IMG/VR virus record: IMGVR_UViG_2061766007_000422
DNA length: 38,019 bases
Reading direction: 5' to 3' (one strand)
Source: an uncultured virus (IMG/VR IMGVR_UViG_2061766007_000422)
Taxonomy: Duplodnaviria; Heunggongvirae; Uroviricota; Caudoviricetes
Below are positions 1,440 to 25,760 of this stretch, piece by piece. Each line of letters begins with the position of its first letter. Positions within the stretch are counted from its first letter, which is position 1. Below the pieces are notes generated by a model. It was given only the letters and a program-made list of their open reading frames with translations, ran no database searches and had not been told where the DNA came from. Made by a program: the position numbers and the translations under genes.

Positions 1440-1440
1440 G

Positions 1441-1512
1441 TGCGCCTGGCGAGGATCGAACTCGCGTTCATAGATTAAAAGTCATGTGCTCTACCGACTG
1501 AGCTACGGGCAC
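1441..1512 (-). tRNA. tRNA-Lys(TTT) with an irregular anticodon stem
   Basis: D arm GCTCAGTCGGTAGAGC, loop CTTTTAA, T arm GCGAG-TTCGATC-CTCGC; stem CATGA/TC(T)ATG needs a bulge. Confidence 0.85.
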
Positions 1513-1718: not shown

Positions 1719-2648
1719 TTATACTATATATTTCCAATGAAGTTTTTCTTTAGTTTCTGGATGTTTTCCTGCAGATTTATAGCTACCTCTACCGGCTAAA
1801 TAATCCTTAATAGGGCTGCTACTTTTTAAACCACACCAATTTGCTGCTTCACGCACGGAAGGAAAAATTTGTTGTGTTTCAATACATTGAACCATTTTTC
1901 CTAAATGCTGGGGAACTGCTGGCAATTTATCCAATTTTTCTTTTGACCACTGGTAGCCATATGCTAAATTTTGATTATTATCTTTATGTAATGCACGACT
2001 AATATTGGTTTCACAGCCAGCATAAGTCTTTCCAATAGCTCTACAAGCACTAGTGATAGAAGGATAAGAAGCAATATATTTGCCATCTATTGAATATTGG
2101 TGAATTTCAATAACATCTGAAAAATATATTTTTTGATTTTCAGAAAAATTATATTTTTCGCCAACTTTTATTTTTCCTTGTTTTATTGCACGAATAGCGC
2201 CGCGAGAATGGCTTGTTGTGGCATTATAATCATGATAACCTTTTAAACGATATTGTACGAGTGTATGACCGCATCCAACGATTTCTGTAATTTCTTTTAC
2301 ACTATAACCATCATCCCATAGTTGTCTTATTAAAATTGGGTCAAAAATCCAACTATTTTCACCTTGTCCGCCTTTGGTAGAATTATATCCATTATTAAAA
2401 GAATCATAATAATTTATCCAATAACGTTCTTTAGCGTCTAATACACTTGAGTCTAAATTACATTCTTCAATTACTTCAAAGATAAAATTATCAATTCCGT
2501 CTTCTTCCATCGCAGGATATAATTTTCCATTTTTTCTTTTATTTTTAGCCTCATAAATATGTTGTATCCAACGATTTTTTATATCAATACTTTGACCAAT
2601 ATAAACTTTATTATTTAAAATATTTGTAATTTTATAAATACCAATCAT
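1719..2648 (-). CDS. GIY-YIG homing endonuclease with HTH/NUMOD-like C-terminal repeats
   Basis: GIYKITN..VYIGQS..RW..H, ERYWI, GYNST.GG; ATG 2648 preferred to GTG 2657 on RBS spacing. Confidence 0.92.
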   Translation of the reverse strand: MIGIYKITNILNNKVYIGQSIDIKNRWIQHIYEAKNKRKNGKLYPAMEEDGIDNFIFEVIEECNLDSSVLDAKERYWINYYDSFNNGYNSTKGGQGENSWIFDPILIRQLWDDGYSVKEITEIVGCGHTLVQYRLKGYHDYNATTSHSRGAIRAIKQGKIKVGEKYNFSENQKIYFSDVIEIHQYSIDGKYIASYPSITSACRAIGKTYAGCETNISRALHKDNNQNLAYGYQWSKEKLDKLPAVPQHLGKMVQCIETQQIFPSVREAANWCGLKSSSPIKDYLAGRGSYKSAGKHPETKEKLHWKYIV

Positions 2649-2654
2649 AATTTT

Positions 2655-2730
2655 CACCCCATTAAAAATTATTGGCTGAGTGATGGGGCACTCTTATCCC
2701 GTATAGGCGGCCAAACCTTCCGTTTCCCAA
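2655..2730 (-). promoter_or_regulatory. structured leader with an anti-SD loop upstream of GIY-YIG gene
   Basis: GAGTG-CCCCAT-CACTC hairpin whose loop is complementary to the RBS ATGGGG; homologous to 6473-6555. Confidence 0.6.
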
Positions 2731-2738
2731 AATATAAG

Positions 2739-2855
2739 TGCTACCGAGTAGATTCGAACTACCACTGCGTAGATTTTAAAAACCAGTGTAAGTGATGACC
2801 TTACTTCGCTCTGGCTACCGGTTGTCTACTGCCTCTGCCGTTGGGCTACGGTAGC
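2739..2855 (-). tRNA. tRNA-Leu(TAA) interrupted by a 44-nt insertion (2780-2823) in the anticodon loop
   Basis: GCTACCG/CGGTAGC acceptor, D arm GCCCAACGGCAGAGGC, T arm GGTAG-TTCGAAT-CTACT; removing the insert gives GTAGA-CTTAAAA-TCTAC. Confidence 0.85.
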
Positions 2856-2866
2856 ATTTTTTATAT

Positions 2867-3082
2867 TTATATTCTATCTTCGTAATCTTCCCCAAACACT
2901 TCTTCTATGCTTTTTTCCGAATATCCAAGTGCTCGCGCGAAAATCTTACACATACGCTGAAGATTACCAATAGTAGATTTATCTTCTGCTACATGAAAAT
3001 TTATATCAACATCATTAGCAAATTCATTGGTATCATTCCAATACTGAAATTCAAAATGTTCGTTACGTTCAATTTCTTTCAT
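2867..3082 (-). CDS. hypothetical protein
   Basis: ORF in operon, GAGG RBS before ATG 3082. Confidence 0.7.
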   Translation of the reverse strand: MKEIERNEHFEFQYWNDTNEFANDVDINFHVAEDKSTIGNLQRMCKIFARALGYSEKSIEEVFGEDYEDRI

Positions 3083-3086
3083 TATT

Positions 3087-3302
3087 TTAATCCTCTTCAT
3101 CTATTAAACTATCCAAAATTTTTTCACAGAGTGGCATAGTAGCAGGAAAAGTAAAAATACAAATGAAAATAAGCCACCATCGCTGGAAAATTAGCATCAA
3201 TACGGCTGGAACAGTAAAAGTAATTATACCAATCAATACTGTTAAATATAGAATTTTCATCATTTCTTTAAAATTTTTCCAATATTGTTTCATTTTTACC
3301 AT
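3087..3302 (-). CDS. small membrane protein (two hydrophobic segments)
   Basis: Hydrophobic stretches ILYLTVLIGII... and WWLIFICIFTF; overlaps the upstream stop. Confidence 0.7.
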   Translation of the reverse strand: MVKMKQYWKNFKEMMKILYLTVLIGIITFTVPAVLMLIFQRWWLIFICIFTFPATMPLCEKILDSLIDEED

Positions 3303-5611: not shown

Positions 5612-6466
5612 TTATATCTCCTTATCAATAAATTTCCAACCAAATCCTTTTGATGTTTTTAATATACCACGACAAACTCTACTAAGTGTAGAAACACAAC
5701 CGTTTATTTCTCTTGCCGCAGTAGACAAAGAAGGAAAGGTTTTTATTATTTCATTTGTATTTAAATCTATTTGTGCAACTGCACGAGCGGTCATATCTCT
5801 AGTTTTATTTGGAAGTTGTACTTCCCAAAAATAATCTTTGTAAAAATTATGATGTGTTGACAAACCTTCTCGAAAAGTTGCCCTACAAACTCCTAAAGAT
5901 ATCGCTGCTTGAGCCAAAGAAGAAAATTCTTCAATTGCTTCAAACGTAATTGGGTCTCTTTTTATAATTTTTTTAGCATATGGCATATATGAACTTTTTG
6001 CATTTTCTTTGCTTCGTTCTAATTTTTCTTCTGTAGTTATACCATTAGAACTTAATACTATACCAACTGCTGATGGACTACAAGAAACTATTTCACTAAT
6101 TTGCTTAATACTGAAACCTTCTTCCCATAATTCTGCAATTTTATTATGGTCATGTAAGTTATGTCCATCTCCACCCAATGTTAAATTATAACCATTATTA
6201 TAACTGTCATAATATTCTATCCAATATCTTTCTCGTTCATCTAATTGTTCAATAGGAACTAATTCAATAATTTCATAATTAAAATTTTCATTACCATATT
6301 CTCTAATTGCTTTATAAAGAGCTGAATTATTATATTTTTTCCAATTTGGGTGTAAAGCTGCACTTTTATGTGCATACCATCTAGTATAAATATCGCAACT
6401 TTTTCCTATATAAACTTGATTATTTATTTTATTAGTAATTTTATAAATTCCGCTTAAAACTTTCAT
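5612..6466 (-). CDS. GIY-YIG homing endonuclease with NUMOD1-like repeats
   Basis: GIYKITN..VYIGKS, ERERYWI, GYNLTLGG; two F.SL..AA...WE/WK repeats. Confidence 0.92.
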   Translation of the reverse strand: MKVLSGIYKITNKINNQVYIGKSCDIYTRWYAHKSAALHPNWKKYNNSALYKAIREYGNENFNYEIIELVPIEQLDERERYWIEYYDSYNNGYNLTLGGDGHNLHDHNKIAELWEEGFSIKQISEIVSCSPSAVGIVLSSNGITTEEKLERSKENAKSSYMPYAKKIIKRDPITFEAIEEFSSLAQAAISLGVCRATFREGLSTHHNFYKDYFWEVQLPNKTRDMTARAVAQIDLNTNEIIKTFPSLSTAAREINGCVSTLSRVCRGILKTSKGFGWKFIDKEI

Positions 6467-6472
6467 TATTAT

Positions 6473-6555
6473 CAACCCCTACTTGATAATAATATAAGGC
6501 TGAATAATAGGGGTATTCTTATCTCATAAAAGAGCGACCTTTATGCTACCCTTAT
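6473..6555 (-). promoter_or_regulatory. structured leader with an anti-SD loop upstream of GIY-YIG gene
   Basis: GAATA-CCCCTAT-TATTC hairpin, loop complementary to the RBS TAGGGG; homologous to 2655-2730. Confidence 0.6.
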
Positions 6556-6926: not shown

Positions 6927-6999
6927 CGCCCAGTGAGAATTACGATATCCCGACACCAACGTTAACAGCGTTGCGCTCTACCAACTGAGCTAACTGGGC
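6927..6999 (-). tRNA. tRNA-Asn(GTT) with atypical T arm
   Basis: GCCCAGT/ACTGGGC, canonical D arm, CAACG-CTGTTAA-CGTTG; T loop ATCGTAA. Confidence 0.88.
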
Positions 7000-7812: not shown

Positions 7813-7920
7813 GTGCACCCGTCTTTGGACTATTTTTACTTGGTAGAGTTCGGTACTAGCCAATCGCCCGTAGCAGTTCATGACGCTGCCTAACAATGCG
7901 TGGCCTGCGTCCCACGCTCG

Positions 7921-7994
7921 TGCTCATTAGAGGAGTTGAACCTCTAAAATCTTGATTTTGAATCAAGCACGTTTGCCAATTACGTCAAATGAGC
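7921..7994 (-). tRNA. tRNA-Leu(CAA), short variable loop
   Basis: GCTCATT/AATGAGC, CTTGA-TTCAAAA-TCAAG, AGAGG-TTCAACT-CCTCT. Confidence 0.9.
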
Positions 7995-8989: not shown

Positions 8990-9640
8990 TTATTTATATT
9001 TCCATATATAACCACCAGCAGTCTTTAATTTTCCTTGGCAAGCTCGTGCTAGATTGCTGGTCGGGATAGATGTTTGACGAGAAGCTTCACTTATAGATAC
9101 ATATTCTTGTATTAACTCTTCTTGTAAATTATATTGTAATATTGGTCGAGCTTTATATTGAGCCCCTCTACGACGTCTTTCGTTGGGAGAAATATTTAAT
9201 TCATCTAAAATATTAGTTAAAGTTTGATGTGTACAATGCGTTATCTCTTTAATTTCTGTATGAGATTTACCTTCATTCCATAATGATAAGATTAAATCTC
9301 TATCATATCTTTTTTTAAAAACATTGGTTTCGCCGCCTGCTGTCATATTATACCCATTACAATTAGGTAATTGAATAAAAGTATGATAATAAGAAATCCA
9401 ATATTTTTCTCTTTCATTTAGTTTTTCTTCTGAACAATATTCTAATATATCAAAAGAAAAATTTTCTATTCCATATGTTCTAATTGCAGTATAAATTAAA
9501 CTATTATACATATCATTATTACGATTAAAAGGCTGGGTACGATGAGCCCGTAATCTTACTTTAAGATTTTTAGACTTACCAATATAGCTTTTTCCATTAC
9601 AATTATTTGTAATTTTATAAATACCAGAATTGTTTTCCAT
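8990..9640 (-). CDS. GIY-YIG homing endonuclease with NUMOD1-like C-terminus
   Basis: GIYKITN..SYIGKS, EREKYWI, GYNMTAGG, ACQGKLKTAGGYIWKY. Confidence 0.92.
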   Translation of the reverse strand: MENNSGIYKITNNCNGKSYIGKSKNLKVRLRAHRTQPFNRNNDMYNSLIYTAIRTYGIENFSFDILEYCSEEKLNEREKYWISYYHTFIQLPNCNGYNMTAGGETNVFKKRYDRDLILSLWNEGKSHTEIKEITHCTHQTLTNILDELNISPNERRRRGAQYKARPILQYNLQEELIQEYVSISEASRQTSIPTSNLARACQGKLKTAGGYIWKYK

Positions 9641-9742
9641 GATTTTTTTTAGCCTCTCATAAACATATACTCCTTTTATATTTGCGATTCCTTACTCGCA
9701 TTATATTTGTTGATTGGGTTCCTTTCCCCTTTCAACATAATA

Positions 9743-13491: not shown

Positions 13492-14418
13492 CTTAATCCC
13501 GCTACTTTCGTAGGGGCCAGACTATCTCTTCATTTATTCTATTTTCAAGGTCTTCATAATAAGCAATTTGAAGTAATTTGTATCCATTACGTTTACAATA
13601 ATCTTCTTTAATTAAATCGTGTGCGACGGTTTTTAAAAAATTATCTTCACCGCCGAAATAATCTACAGATTTAAAATGTTGACCGCCTTGTAATTCTACA
13701 AGTAGATTTAATTCAGGAATGTAAAAATCAAATGGTAATGGACGTATATCAGCACAATCTTCAAAAATCTTTTGTGCTTCAAATGATATTTTATGCTTTA
13801 ATAATATCGCGCGTGTCTTACTTTCCATTGAAGAAATCATACAACCACAACTTTTAACACTACCACTTTTTAAGTGACGTCCATCTACAACACATTGGTT
13901 TCCACACTCACACTGACAATTATATTTTACGCCTTTTCCAATTTCTGTGGTTCTAGATAAAACTAATAATTTGCCAAATTGTTGCCCAGATAAATCATTG
14001 AATTTTCTTCTGCTACATTGGCTACAAGATTGTATCTTATCTTGCAGAATATGATTGCTTTGTGTTTTAAATTCTTGCTTACAAATAGGACAAATGCAAA
14101 TCCATTTTTTATGCTTTCCTGCGCCCATTGAAGTCTTATCTACTTCTTTAATGTATAAGCCACCATTTAGCATTTGTCCAGTTAAATCTATATACGGTCT
14201 TCCCATTTTATTATCCCCTTAAAAATAAAATAAAGCACGGCGCTTCGTAAGTAGGAATTTCACCTACAAACTACGAGTTATCTCTAGTCGTTACACTTTC
14301 CTATTAAATAGGCTTAGCACGGTATTGGCTTGCCTCTCGGTTTAGCGTTCACCGTTAGCCGCAATTGCGACACCCTAGATTTCTAGGTTCACCGTGTTTA
14401 AAGGCGGCCATTACGTTA
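13492..14418 (-). mobile_element. group I intron (927 nt)
   Basis: P1 GGCGGT/GCCGCC with U.G at the 5' splice site, P3 CACGGTG/CGCCGTG, P7 GACTA/TAGTC, terminal G at 13492, P10 GTAATG/CATTAC. Confidence 0.92.
13502..14206 (-). CDS. intron-encoded endonuclease: Cys-rich DL.GQ repeats + PD-(D/E)xK/Vsr-like domain
   Basis: Two DL(T/S)GQ...C.C..C repeats; PFDFYIP...LVELQGGQHF...HD..K..YC...LLQI.Y. Confidence 0.8.
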   Translation of the reverse strand: MGRPYIDLTGQMLNGGLYIKEVDKTSMGAGKHKKWICICPICKQEFKTQSNHILQDKIQSCSQCSRRKFNDLSGQQFGKLLVLSRTTEIGKGVKYNCQCECGNQCVVDGRHLKSGSVKSCGCMISSMESKTRAILLKHKISFEAQKIFEDCADIRPLPFDFYIPELNLLVELQGGQHFKSVDYFGGEDNFLKTVAHDLIKEDYCKRNGYKLLQIAYYEDLENRINEEIVWPLRK

Positions 14419-21730: not shown

Positions 21731-24097
21731 TTATGTAGTAATGGTCCAACCTTTATTGGTTGCAATTGCGCGCTCGGCAGATGTGAGTTGATTTAAGGCA
21801 TTAGAATATATTGTAATTGTACGAGAAGTGGTTACGGTAGGAAGATTAGTAAAAATGTTTATTAAAGATTCATAAGTAAGAGAAAAACAGGAAGAATAGG
21901 TGTGATTTATTGCTATTGGGATAGTACCATTATAGGCTGCTAATGAAACACAATAATAAAACAAATTAGTTACGTTAGATAATTTAGGTAATAGCCAATT
22001 TGTAATTGTTAATTTTTTTAAATTAAAACAATCATAAAACATACCTTGAATAGTAGTACAGGAAGCTAAATTCCAATTATTTATTGTGATTTCCTCTAAA
22101 GCGTAACAATCTCTAAACATATATCCAAGTGTAGTAACTTTAGAAACATTCCAATTATTTAAATTTGGTAATGAATTTAATGAATAACAATAACAGAACA
22201 TGGCCTCTAAAGTAGTTACTTTACTTGTATTCCAATTACTAATATCTCCTACGGTTGTTAATGAAATACAGTTCGAAAATATATTACCCAAATTAGTAAC
22301 ATTATTAGTGTTCCAATTAGATAAATCTAGACTAGTTAAAGAGCGGCAATTATAAAACATATAACTCATAGTTGTCGCGGCGGAAGTATCCCAATTGCTT
22401 ACGTCTAAAGCTTTTAATGAGATACAACCATTAAACATACTATTAAAATTAGTAATTTTACTAACATTCCACCCACTTATATCTAATGTTTCTAATGAAT
22501 AACATTCACTAAATAAGCTACTTGCCGTAAGATATTGAGAACCATTTAAATTCCAATTAGAAATACCTGTAATTCTTTTTAGAGAAAAGCATCTAGTAAA
22601 TAAATTATTTATCGCGCTAGCGCTATTAATTCCACTTAAATCCCAATCATTTGGAATATCTAAATATTGTAGAGAGCAGCACATATAAAAACAATTATAA
22701 ATTGTAGTGCATGTATTAGTCACGTGCCAACCACTAATGTCTATAAATGGTAAACTTATACACCCTGAAAAAACCGCATATAATTCAGTAGTAGAGTTAA
22801 TTTGCCACCCTGTTATATTCAATTGTTTTAAACTATAGCAATTATAAAATAAACTACTAACATTTGTTACATTACTTACATCCCAAGTATGTAAATCTAA
22901 TTTTTCTAAATTATAACAATTTGTGAAAATATTGTTTATTCTAGTTACTTTATTGGTTATATTCCAAGAAGATATAAAATCTATATTTTGTAAACTATTA
23001 CAACCAGAAAATACACTATTTAAATTAGTAATATTAGAAGTGTCCCAATTAGATAAATCTGGTAATTCTTGTAAATTACTACAATTAGAAAATAAGGCAG
23101 ACAAAGTAGTACAATTACTAATATCAAAAGTTTCAATTCCATAAATATGTTTAAGACTAAAGCAATAATTAAACATTTCACTTATTTGATTTGGTATTAA
23201 ATTCCAACCTGTTAAATTGATTTCAGTAACTAAATAACAAAAACAAAACATACGATTTACATTTTTTACCTTAGTAACATTAAAATGTCGTAAATCTAAA
23301 GCTTGGTTTAAATTTGAGCACCAATTAAACATATATCTCATGTCAGTAACATTCTGTGTTTTTAAGCCGCTAATATCAATTTCTTTTAAGCTATAACAAT
23401 TGTGATAAGCATATCCTAAATAAGTTAACGCTGCACCATCACCATTATTTATTTTTTCTCTTTGTAGGTAATAAGAACCCCATTCTCCATTAGCACTACC
23501 TGATAAGTCAATAGCATGTGGTACGTAAGCTACTCTTTCTAAAACAGGTTGTTGCTGTATAGCTTGAGTTCGGCCATCCCGAGTAATTTCTCTAAAATGA
23601 CACATAGTAATATTCCCTGTTACTCTAATAATAGGATAGCCGCCTAATCCATCTAATGACTTTGTATAAATATTATTCGTGCCACTAATAGTCTCATCAA
23701 TTACATATGCACCAGAACTAATATGACCCATCGTAACTTCAATATTACTTCCTGTAATATACAAATTTACTGCACCATAAGTTCTAGTAGCATCATAAGT
23801 CATATAAATGAAATCTGTATCGCCTTCCATTTGTAAATTTAAACTATCTAAATCAGGCCAACCTTGCGGGCGCACCCACGGCGCAGGATTTTCATTTATA
23901 TGCAACTTAACTCTTGCACTAACCATATACTTTTGTTTTAATTCTTCAATCATTTCTGGAATAGAGTTAGTATCAAACTGTCCAGTCCTATAATTAACTG
24001 CATCATTGAATTCTTCCATCTGCTCGGGAGTAATCTCATTATATCTATCTCTATGAAACGATGCGCCTACTTTTGTATCTCCTAAATAAATGCTCAT
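21731..24097 (-). CDS. BspA/DUF285-like leucine-rich-repeat protein
   Basis: Many W.(T/V)S.VT....MF..C.SL..LD.S repeats; ends IATNKGWTI. Confidence 0.88.
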   Translation of the reverse strand: MSIYLGDTKVGASFHRDRYNEITPEQMEEFNDAVNYRTGQFDTNSIPEMIEELKQKYMVSARVKLHINENPAPWVRPQGWPDLDSLNLQMEGDTDFIYMTYDATRTYGAVNLYITGSNIEVTMGHISSGAYVIDETISGTNNIYTKSLDGLGGYPIIRVTGNITMCHFREITRDGRTQAIQQQPVLERVAYVPHAIDLSGSANGEWGSYYLQREKINNGDGAALTYLGYAYHNCYSLKEIDISGLKTQNVTDMRYMFNWCSNLNQALDLRHFNVTKVKNVNRMFCFCYLVTEINLTGWNLIPNQISEMFNYCFSLKHIYGIETFDISNCTTLSALFSNCSNLQELPDLSNWDTSNITNLNSVFSGCNSLQNIDFISSWNITNKVTRINNIFTNCYNLEKLDLHTWDVSNVTNVSSLFYNCYSLKQLNITGWQINSTTELYAVFSGCISLPFIDISGWHVTNTCTTIYNCFYMCCSLQYLDIPNDWDLSGINSASAINNLFTRCFSLKRITGISNWNLNGSQYLTASSLFSECYSLETLDISGWNVSKITNFNSMFNGCISLKALDVSNWDTSAATTMSYMFYNCRSLTSLDLSNWNTNNVTNLGNIFSNCISLTTVGDISNWNTSKVTTLEAMFCYCYSLNSLPNLNNWNVSKVTTLGYMFRDCYALEEITINNWNLASCTTIQGMFYDCFNLKKLTITNWLLPKLSNVTNLFYYCVSLAAYNGTIPIAINHTYSSCFSLTYESLINIFTNLPTVTTSRTITIYSNALNQLTSAERAIATNKGWTITT

Positions 24098-25238: not shown

Positions 25239-25760
25239 TTAATTTCGATGAAATACTAGGGTTTCATCTAGCACTTCATCATTACAATTTAATTTATTAT
25301 TCCAAAACTGTCTTTCATTCGTCGTAACGTGCTTAACATTGTCGTTTATATGCGCGGTTAGGCTCTGTAATACATCATCACCCACGAAAGGTAAGTCTAT
25401 TCCATAGGCTTGGCCGTCTCCAATTTTAATACCTGGGACTACTGTGCCATTTGATAACGTAGCCTTGTCCGCGTAAATAACAATATCGCCGCTATTTGGA
25501 ATAAAAGTTGGTTGCGCGCGCCAGTTTTCAGTGCTATTGATTAAAATAGTTTTACCATCAACTGTGCGGCTATCTATAAAAGGTAAATCTGAGACTAATG
25601 TAACACCGTCGCCCACCTTTAAACGAAAAAAAGGGTGAGCTTCATCAGTTGAATATATGATGAGCTCACCTTTCATAGGACGAAAGCCTGCTGCTTTGTT
25701 CCAATTAGCCTCAGTATCATTTTTCAACTGAATACGTGTTTTTACAGTCTGTCCTGTCAT
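25239..25760 (-). CDS. Mtd_N/hyaluronidase-N-like tail fibre protein (two copies of the motif)
   Basis: RIQLKNDTEANW...P.KGE...LKVGDG..V.DLPF, repeated as W....P..GD...IKIGDG...DLPF. Confidence 0.75.
   Translation of the reverse strand: MTGQTVKTRIQLKNDTEANWNKAAGFRPMKGELIIYSTDEAHPFFRLKVGDGVTLVSDLPFIDSRTVDGKTILINSTENWRAQPTFIPNSGDIVIYADKATLSNGTVVPGIKIGDGQAYGIDLPFVGDDVLQSLTAHINDNVKHVTTNERQFWNNKLNCNDEVLDETLVFHRN

Follow-up and report, generated by a model that had tools for sequence, protein, structure and literature searches.

Interruption of the anticodon loop in a phage tRNA(UAA) gene by an insert resembling a tRNA top half, with counterparts in related phages

Introduction

The question raised by the locus described here is what a short insert is doing in the anticodon loop of a phage tRNA gene and how, if at all, it is taken out. 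The locus lies in a stretch of 38,019 nucleotides (nt) from an uncultured virus of the Caudoviricetes (IMG/VR record IMGVR_UViG_2061766007_000422), the whole of which is designated below as the window; the gene in question is located on the minus strand, has the anticodon UAA and is interrupted by 44 nt. In the textbook view, the introns of tRNAs are divided into self-splicing ones, found in bacteria and organelles, and endonuclease-spliced ones, found in archaea and eukaryotes. The original prediction, made from the sequence without database searches, saw in the 44 nt a hairpin insertion and offered three options for it—a protein-spliced mini-intron, what is left of a collapsed group I intron, or else a non-decoding decoy. 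As described in the following section, the insert is real and represents a minimal intervening sequence shaped like the top half of a tRNA, i.e. the stack of the acceptor and T arms, with a helix of 12 bp and a discriminator base.

The interrupted gene and the shape of its insert

With introns allowed, ARAGORN calls a tRNA-Leu(taa) at c[2738,2855], the spliced form of which has 74 nt, an intron of 44 nt following position 32. No tRNA is called at 2739-2855 by the same program in its default mode, nor by Rfam, either at the gathering scores or at E<=10 (region 2600-3000). The gene has a short variable arm and the discriminator A73, and its CCA end is not encoded, as in all the tRNA genes called by ARAGORN in the window (CCA encoded by 0/7). 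Its exons form a canonical tRNA cloverleaf according to both ARAGORN and the reading of the sequence; U8, G18G19, the T loop and U33 are all present, and position 37 is a purine. The insert corresponds to 2823..2780 on the minus strand, and the anticodon loop without it reads CTTAAAA. When the gene is aligned by MAFFT with five uninterrupted short-variable-arm tRNAs having Leu anticodons, a single clean gap of 44 columns appears in all five comparisons; the loop CTTAAAA is, moreover, identical in the uninterrupted tRNAs L003:973-1049 and L066:10362-10435 from related loci (labelled L001 and onwards), the anticodon stem being very similar in both. The tRNA-Leu(TAA) with a 44-nt insert at 32/33 claimed in the original prediction is, in this way, borne out by both the intron-mode call and the alignment gap, and so is the claim that the removal of 2780-2823 restores the loop CTTAAAA and leaves the rest of the tRNA intact. 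The details concerning all the parts of the gene are collected in Table 1.

As far as the possible importance of the gene is concerned, TTA accounts for 342 of the 659 Leu codons (52%) in 36 open reading frames (ORFs) of the window, being the commonest Leu codon, and a second tRNA(UAA) was found in the 38-kb window neither in the default nor in the intron mode of ARAGORN. Given this usage and the lack of any other tRNA(UAA) in the window, the tRNA would matter to the phage. It should be pointed out here that short-variable-arm tRNAs of 74-77 nt with Leu anticodons (CAA, CAG, UAG, UAA) are found also at 7920-7994 (-) of the window and at L004:3100-3174, L008:3421-3569 and L066:10362-10438; they are unlike the bacterial tRNA-Leu, and some of the loci harbour Leu tRNAs with a long arm as well.

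The insert is present beyond a single isolate. A contig from another study (X3, record 5) covers positions 2710-2954 of the window with 23 differences and no gaps, and a contig from a further study (X6, record 24) covers 2598-2897 with 7 differences, the sole gap being a 6-nt deletion at 2860; the identity to the window is about 91% in the former and 98% in the latter. Since both of them span the gene without any indel inside it, the insert, having the same length in all three sources, is not an assembly quirk of one sample.

Concerning its shape, the minimum-free-energy fold of the insert alone consists of the two stems named in the original prediction, the basal one being AACCGGT/ACTGGTT and the apical one GTAAG/CTTAC. 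The stems are, accordingly, real, but the term hairpin insertion describes them only in part, because what they build is not a plain hairpin but the top half of a tRNA. The parts sum exactly to the length of the insert (7+12+5+7+5+7+1 = 44), with 12/12 pairs formed and zero mismatches. A 7-nt loop containing U33 and A37 is obtained in a single register, and the edges of the insert, set independently by the need for such a loop, coincide with the start of the inner acceptor stem and with the position one base past its end. The exact top-half geometry was reached in 15 of 200,000 shuffles of the 51 nt comprising the loop and the insert, whereas the loose geometry, allowing one mismatch per stem, was reached in 2301 of 200,000. 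In the T-like loop, U55, C56 and A57 match the T-loop consensus (UUCRANN type), whereas positions 54 and 58 do not. The insert possesses neither an NCCA tail nor the pair G3-U70, its tail being a single U.

A class of tRNA-shaped inserts in related phages

The nearest relatives of the window were found among the records of IMG/VR and rumen metagenome contigs; they are ~180 kb in size and exhibit 50-80% identity in the neighbouring protein, which served as the query in the scan by which the metagenome loci were gathered. The survey of the class, performed by ARAGORN -i on 70 sources covering 505,590 nt, yielded 15 distinct inserts of 30-130 nt. The geometry test was passed by 14 of the 15, eleven of them with no mismatch; the insert L048_49 passed marginally, and its homologue L053_50 failed. 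In 14/15, a loop of 7 nt having U33 and a purine at position 37 is what remains after a cut at the start of the helix and another one 1-4 nt past its end.

The stem cells are paired in 163 of 168 cases, whereas redealing the 3' strands among the elements gives a mean of 92.1 (sd 7.3, max 123), and none of 5000 permutations of the 3' strands reaches 163. The sequences of the stems vary between the elements, several hairpin loops are canonical T loops, and the pair 53-61 is represented by only two pair types among the 14 inserts, i.e. it is nearly constant as in real tRNAs. The base preceding the insert is U in 10/14 and the first base of the insert is G, likewise in 10/14. In the larger members, the linker is replaced by D-arm-like and other hairpins. 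With regard to the 3' tails, NCCA is present in seven inserts, ACAA in one, N followed by C in four (five with L048) and a single N in one, the latter being the insert of the window. A scan for free-standing minihelices with NCCA retrieved mostly pieces of ordinary tRNAs, the two clean short matches being the inserts of L003 and L004. An alignment of the insert family by MAFFT did not bring the 5' strands into register.

The insert of the window is one of this class, the tRNA-shaped inserts that recur in the anticodon loops of tRNAs from gut and rumen phages, its membership being given by shape alone because it has no sequence kinship with the other members—BLAST of the insert against all the related loci returned only 10-nt chance matches.

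Two further features were observed among the inserts of the related loci. The T-like arm of those at L003:4591-4637, L014:5314-5386 and L053:1795-1869 is a hairpin with differing, covarying stems and the 7-nt loop GGCAGTA (GGCGGTA in the last one), a hairpin with the GGCAGTA loop occurring within the group I intron of L001:7869-8279 as well. The combination of G3-U70, A73 and CCA, i.e. an acceptor end of the alanine/tmRNA type, is found in three inserts.

Identities of the interrupted tRNAs

The geometry described above can be turned into a structural rule for the junctions, placing the first cut at the start of the helix and the second one so that 7 nt are left. Under this rule, the anticodon differs from that reported by ARAGORN in 9 of the 13 related genes that pass the geometry test, and it is very likely that ARAGORN -i misnames these nine interrupted tRNAs (listed in Table 1). 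The genes of L003 and L014, having near-identical bodies, are called Thr and Trp by ARAGORN, the structural rule giving Lys(UUU) for both. Four genes that agree in their anticodon stem (that of L038 being one base off) share one loop under the rule, and Gln(UUG) replaces there the Glu and Thr of ARAGORN. The gene of L067 becomes Asn(GUU); the same slot in L068 is occupied by an uninterrupted tRNA-Asn of a different body, and no other Asn tRNA was found in L067. For the gene of the window, the anticodon is UAA under both ARAGORN and the structural rule. The structural junction rule thus gives mutually consistent tRNA identities where that of ARAGORN does not.

Proposed route of intron removal

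Based on the shape and the edges of the insert, the best-supported mechanism for its removal is a combination of RNase P, RNase Z and an RNA ligase, a proposal drawn from the sequence and one which we consider about evenly balanced between right and wrong. The host RNase P would cut at 2824/2823, just 5' of the first base in the inner acceptor stem, so that the 5' exon would end with a 3'-OH, and the host RNase Z would cut at 2780/2779, past the inner discriminator, leaving a 5'-phosphate on the 3' exon. The exons would be kept together by the outer acceptor and anticodon stems; their 3'-OH/5'-P ends would need no healing, and an ATP-dependent 3'-OH/5'-P RNA ligase would close the loop, the product being a working tRNA that reads UUA. 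The more general idea, put forward with more reserve, is that a top-half intron hijacks the tRNA end-trimming enzymes and a phage nick-sealing ligase of the Rnl5 type rejoins the exons, which would possibly represent a further way of tRNA splicing. Of the three options of the original prediction, the protein-spliced mini-intron fits best, although the endonuclease/RtcB route that came with it is unsupported, the shape and the edges pointing to RNase P and RNase Z instead.

Several published properties of these enzymes are relevant to the proposal. A minihelix composed of the acceptor and T arms is taken as substrate by RNase P, tRNase Z and the CCA-adding enzyme (PMC3714273). RNase Z is described to cut past the discriminator in precursors lacking CCA and past the CCA in those bearing it, a rule covering the archaeal enzymes, the Bacillus subtilis enzyme under the conditions tested and that of Thermotoga (PMC7479834); it is from this rule that the RNase Z site at 2780/2779 is predicted. 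Both the NCCA tails of seven inserts and the single base of the window insert match the two published RNase Z cut sites. The Rnl5 ligases, exemplified by the RNA ligase of Naegleria gruberi (PMC7261155), seal nicks with 3'-OH/5'-PO4 ends (PMC7261155, PMC4408790), and the physiological role of the family has been termed 'uncharted' (PMC5397189).

A candidate ligase is encoded by the related phages. The family PF09414 is present in six of nine related records, in five of them above the cut-off, the three records without it being 27-43% complete. The protein at L064:835-2073 (record G001) combines a PHA02142 OB fold with the RNA_ligase domain; its best solved relative is the Naegleria gruberi RNA ligase (E 7e-31), and its gene is located a few kb from the tRNA cluster. 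With regard to other enzymes, Rnl1 (PF09511) was found in 0/4 related records, a result that carries no information because the positive control was likewise without a match. Neither RNase Z nor the CCA-adding enzyme was detected in the related records (0/5 for each), so that these two would come from the host. In the record G001, genes for a methyltransferase, an AAA_33 kinase and a calcineurin-like phosphoesterase stand side by side (L071:737-2570), with an HNH gene and the Rnl5-type ligase ~3 kb further on, a set that resembles an RNA heal-and-seal module split into separate genes. The ligase alone was considered as a sign of 3'-OH/5'-P ends and rejected in this role, since the kinase and the phosphoesterase are also present in the relatives.

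There are, on the other side, several points that weigh against the removal by RNase P, RNase Z and a ligase. The first of them is that we infer both cuts and the spliced junction from the sequence. The RNA ligase gene was not found in the 38-kb window, which covers a part of the phage genome. In the relatives, the ligase is located near the methyltransferase, the AAA_33 kinase (5/5 records) and the calcineurin-like phosphoesterase; such a set may serve only the repair of nuclease damage, and it would equally suit a route with 5'-OH/cyclic-phosphate ends. The known rules of RNase Z leave both the 2-nt tails (N then C) and the ACAA tail unexplained. As to the insert itself, it is the least tRNA-like member of its class, with a degenerate T-like loop, A-U as the first pair and C as the preceding base. 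Its folding energy is ordinary (z -1.12), 23 of 200 shuffles folding as well. RNase P could be hindered by the closeness of the outer anticodon stem, from which the insert is set off by just a single unpaired base. The persistence of the insert is documented by just two contigs, and no relatives of its sequence were found in IMG/VR, the JGI metagenome loci and the GenBank phages; in the scans of viral contigs with patterns, three exact patterns gave 0 matches, and of the gapped ones the first gave 2 chance non-tRNA matches and the second 0. Finally, a contig of the run X4 apparently joins position 1440 to 2871, although the comparison leaves what lies in between undefined; the interrupted tRNA would be missing from it together with the GIY-YIG gene and two other tRNA genes, and the gene sits, judging from this apparent lack of the block 1441-2870, in a variable cassette.

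Alternative explanations

The alternative that survives best sees here a dead gene, i.e. a tRNA broken by an insertion, for example of a tRNA-like fragment copied in endonuclease-driven recombination, and left unspliced and unused. Damaged tRNAs do occur elsewhere in the cluster (1440-1512 and 6927-6999), the region is rich in homing endonuclease genes, the X4 contig apparently does without the whole block, and the insert is the least canonical of its class. We nevertheless consider a dead gene unlikely, its exons being intact and canonical (U8, G18G19, T loop, A73) and the leftover loop being exactly the CTTAAAA of the uninterrupted homologues. The insert has, moreover, been retained without an indel in two diverged relatives, and TTA is the main Leu codon with no other tRNA(UAA) seen in the window. 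A dead gene, just as a mimic, must explain both the homologue-identical bases around the insert and the perfect 7-nt loops of the fitting inserts; decay would not keep the latter in 14 out of 15 cases.

The mimic just mentioned would be a working RNA that is not spliced, either as a tRNA-shaped decoy or with the insert as a signal for RNase P and RNase Z that releases tRNA halves and a functional free minihelix. Many members of the class end with NCCA and some of them have G3-U70 and A73, so that an excised piece could be CCA-tailed or charged; phage tRNAs are also known to take part in anticodon-nuclease conflicts (PMC10264068). A mimic, however, needs neither the C32 nor the UUAAAA around the insert, which equal the loop of the uninterrupted homologues, nor the remaining loops of 7 nt, with U33 and a purine in position 37, that are left by all the 14 fitting members, and the insert of the window has neither CCA nor G3-U70. 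This explanation appears rather improbable, a little more so than the dead gene.

It is still less probable, albeit worth considering, that the insert is spliced out by some other endonuclease of the phage or the host, leaving 5'-OH and 2',3'-cyclic-phosphate ends to be healed by a kinase and a phosphoesterase before a ligase seals them. The AAA_33 kinase found in all five related records would fit this explanation, as would the adjacency of the methyltransferase, kinase and phosphoesterase in G001, ~3 kb from the ligase, and the 2-nt and ACAA tails, which are not known RNase Z products. A candidate RNA endonuclease was, however, not identified, the 5' junction is the first base of the inner acceptor stem in 14/14, which is the rule of RNase P, and a top half with a free 3' tail would be open to RNase P anyway (PMC3714273).

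The collapsed group I remnant, or a tiny self-splicing RNA, can be regarded as highly improbable. What speaks for it is the slot: the syntenic tRNA-Leu(UAA) of L001 holds a 325-nt group I intron, and L010 and L011 hold one of 726 nt. The 44 nt are, however, too small for a group I core, there is no Rfam intron match at E<=10 in 2600-3000, although the same RF00028 model finds the intron of L001, and BLAST shows no similarity to the introns of L001, L010 and L011. The position differs as well (32/33 versus 34/35), and the insert is preceded by C and ends with U, whereas the group I norm is U before the intron and G as its last base (Williams 2020, preprint). This option of the original prediction is, in other words, unsupported for want of a match, of similarity and of the right position.

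The archaeal/eukaryotic type of intron, in which a bulge-helix-bulge (BHB) is cut by a splicing endonuclease and the exons are joined by RtcB, shares with the insert its shortness and its location in the anticodon loop but is close to refuted, since there is no bulge-helix-bulge (one unpaired base 5' and seven unpaired bases 3' of the junction, with no 4-bp central helix), the position is 32/33 versus 37/38, and the search proposed with the original prediction, made in related phages, came out negative for both enzymes—RtcB in 0/4 related phage records, with the positive control matched in 10/14 genomes, and tRNA_int_endo in 0/5, with the positive control matched in four archaea.

Two other candidates were tried and rejected. 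An intrinsic terminator in the gene, composed of a hairpin and a T run, was not called by the terminator scan. As to collaborative homing with the GIY-YIG neighbour, a single HNH fragment was all that was seen among 38 ORFs near 10 other interrupted tRNAs; as the endonuclease genes are common across the cluster of the window, the adjacency to the GIY-YIG gene was dropped as evidence.

Genomic context

The window represents a rumen phage with a GC content of 36%, encoding a tail protein, an endolysin and many homing endonucleases of the GIY-YIG and HNH types among the tRNA genes (Table 1). Its gene order is shared with L001, the closest of the relatives, covering a 147-aa protein, a 77-aa ORF, tRNA-Leu(UAA), tRNA-Ser(GCU) and tRNA-Gln(UUG). 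The tRNA-Leu(UAA) of L001 has a long arm and is split at 34/35 by its 325-nt intron, which scores 44 bits with Intron_gpI (gathering 50; E 4e-9). The slot shared by the window and L001 thus harbours an interrupted Leu tRNA in both, yet the inserts are unrelated.

Table 1 Features of the interrupted tRNA gene, its surroundings in the window and the interrupted tRNA genes of related loci
Feature	Position	Strand	Basis or remark
Interrupted tRNA(UAA) gene, 117 nt	2739..2855	-	ARAGORN intron mode and alignment to uninterrupted homologues
5' exon, 32 nt: acceptor 5' strand, D arm, anticodon-stem 5' strand, C32	2824..2855	-	
Insert, 44 nt, tRNA top half (minihelix)	2780..2823	-	ARAGORN, folding, geometry test
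Acceptor-like stem, 5' strand, 7 nt	2817..2823	-	7/7 paired
Linker, 12 nt, in place of D and anticodon arms	2805..2816	-	Geometry
T-arm-like hairpin: 5-bp stem closed by G53-C61, 7-nt loop	2788..2804	-	Folding, geometry
Acceptor-like stem, 3' strand, 7 nt, contiguous with T-like stem	2781..2787	-	Geometry
Single unpaired U at discriminator position	2780..2780	-	Geometry
3' exon, 41 nt: U33, anticodon UAA, A37, A38, anticodon-stem 3' strand	2739..2779	-	
3' exon, remainder: variable loop, T arm, acceptor 3' strand, A73	within 2739..2779	-	
GIY-YIG/NUMOD1 homing endonuclease gene	1719..2657	-	82 nt downstream; no link to the insert shown
77-aa ORF	2867..3100	-	Just upstream; homologue precedes tRNA-Leu(UAA) of L001, synteny anchor
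Five homing-endonuclease genes or fragments (GIY-YIG/NUMOD1, one of HNH type)	360-863, 1719-2657, 5612-6475, 8990-9640, 13502-14206	-	
Interrupted tRNA genes very likely misnamed by ARAGORN -i	L003:4557-4677, L004:841-962, L014:5278-5426, L053:1760-1907, L066:14917-15069		Structural junction rule
The same, continued	L067:6449-6580, L022:985-1144, L029:3518-3673, L038:52-211		Structural junction rule

Some of the other RNA genes in the window and in the related loci are worth mentioning. The tRNA at 1440-1512 (-) is given a four-letter anticodon, 'ttta', by ARAGORN and reads as a Lys(UUU)-type tRNA whose anticodon stem has an additional C bulging from its 3' strand. That at 6927-6999 (-), scoring 50.2 bits in Rfam and missed by ARAGORN, has an Asn-type loop with the anticodon GTT and an aberrant T arm. 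A match to the cow-rumen-4 RNA is located at 9683-9738 (-) with 49.8 bits versus the gathering score of 48.5 (Rfam); the related loci contain the ROOL RNA (L001:203-787), the cow-rumen-3 RNA (L003:3607-3744) and a tmRNA positioned directly before the interrupted tRNA (L004:542-839). Amber-suppressor-type tRNAs (CTA) are common in the relatives, occurring at L008:3839-4107, L010:4504-4599, L013:2528-2622 and L014:12247-12335 as well as in L009, L011, L048, L051 and L059, several of them being split by inserts of ~172-192 nt that resemble the group I introns of Leu tRNAs; their frequent presence suggests a recoding of TAG in the related phage clade. The tail region of the window encodes a protein with the N-terminal domain Mtd_N (major tropism determinant) at 25239-25760 (-) and a DUF285/leucine-rich-repeat protein at 21731-24097 (-).

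Implications and comparison with known systems

The insert of the window is about the smallest and cleanest example of its kind, consisting of only the acceptor/T-arm minihelix plus one base, and together with its relatives it yields an exact rule for the positions of the cuts. If the proposed route is true, an intron of this type could hardly be much smaller than the 44 nt, and an essential tRNA gene would be interrupted by a phage without any ribozyme. It would also explain the wrong names given by tRNA finders to 9 of the 13 fitting related genes and suggest a natural function of phage RNA ligases other than the repair of damage, as well as a natural substrate for the Rnl5 family.

The closest published counterparts are the 'enigmatic' introns in the tRNAs of the Lak megaphages (Devoto et al. 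2019; PMC6784885), where introns in phage tRNAs were called previously unreported. With the lengths of 23-141 nt given in Table S6 of that study, they make outdated the statement, accompanying the original prediction, that short tRNA introns are solely archaeal or eukaryotic (PMC6784885). The Lak introns are alike in being short, located in the anticodon loops of gut-phage tRNAs and not of group I, and that of the tRNA-Tyr of A1—the single sequence of Table S6 compared—has a T-arm-like hairpin with an acceptor-like 3' strand behind it (PMC6784885). The intron of the Lak tRNA-Thr(UGU) was noted to 'itself encode a possible tRNA' (PMC6784885). The insert of the window differs in being nothing more than a 44-nt top half, located at 32/33 and lacking CCA. 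The phages differ, too: the Lak phages, which have Prevotella as their host, reach ~540 kb, whereas the relatives of the window are ~180-kb rumen phages. Neither a structural rule nor a splicing route is given in the Lak study, and the text of its preprint contains neither 'RNase P' nor words beginning with 'splic'. Nor was a paper giving a structural rule or splicing route for such inserts found elsewhere in a search that mostly excluded subscription journals, so that the class, although observed before, apparently lacks a published explanation.

The group I intron of tRNA-Leu(UAA), known from cyanobacteria and plastids and present here in L001, L010 and L011, interrupts the anticodon loop of the same tRNA species and, in the closest relative, occupies the same slot. 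It is, however, self-splicing, hundreds of nt long, located at 34/35, preceded by U and terminated by G, and the insert of the window has none of these features. The archaeal and eukaryotic introns, relying on BHB, Sen/EndA and RtcB or Trl1, are alike in being short and not self-splicing, with proteins that cut and join; the insert of the window has no BHB, lies at another position, and its predicted end chemistry is the opposite one (3'-OH/5'-P).

Elements shaped like tRNAs within longer transcripts, both edges of which are cut by RNase P and RNase Z, are represented by the mascRNA of MALAT1 and the t-elements of plant mitochondria. The cuts release ends there and nothing is rejoined, whereas the flanks of the present insert are tRNA halves that would need ligation. 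Breaks in the anticodon loop are, on the other hand, resealed by the T4 Pnkp and Rnl1 after the action of PrrC and by the bacterial Pnkp/Hen1. The likeness consists in an RNA ligase resealing the loop, and the relatives of the window carry a kinase, a phosphoesterase, a methyltransferase and a ligase by the tRNA cluster. The repair, however, answers damage inflicted by the host, whereas in the proposed route the break would be programmed by the structure of the gene itself and its ends would need no healing.

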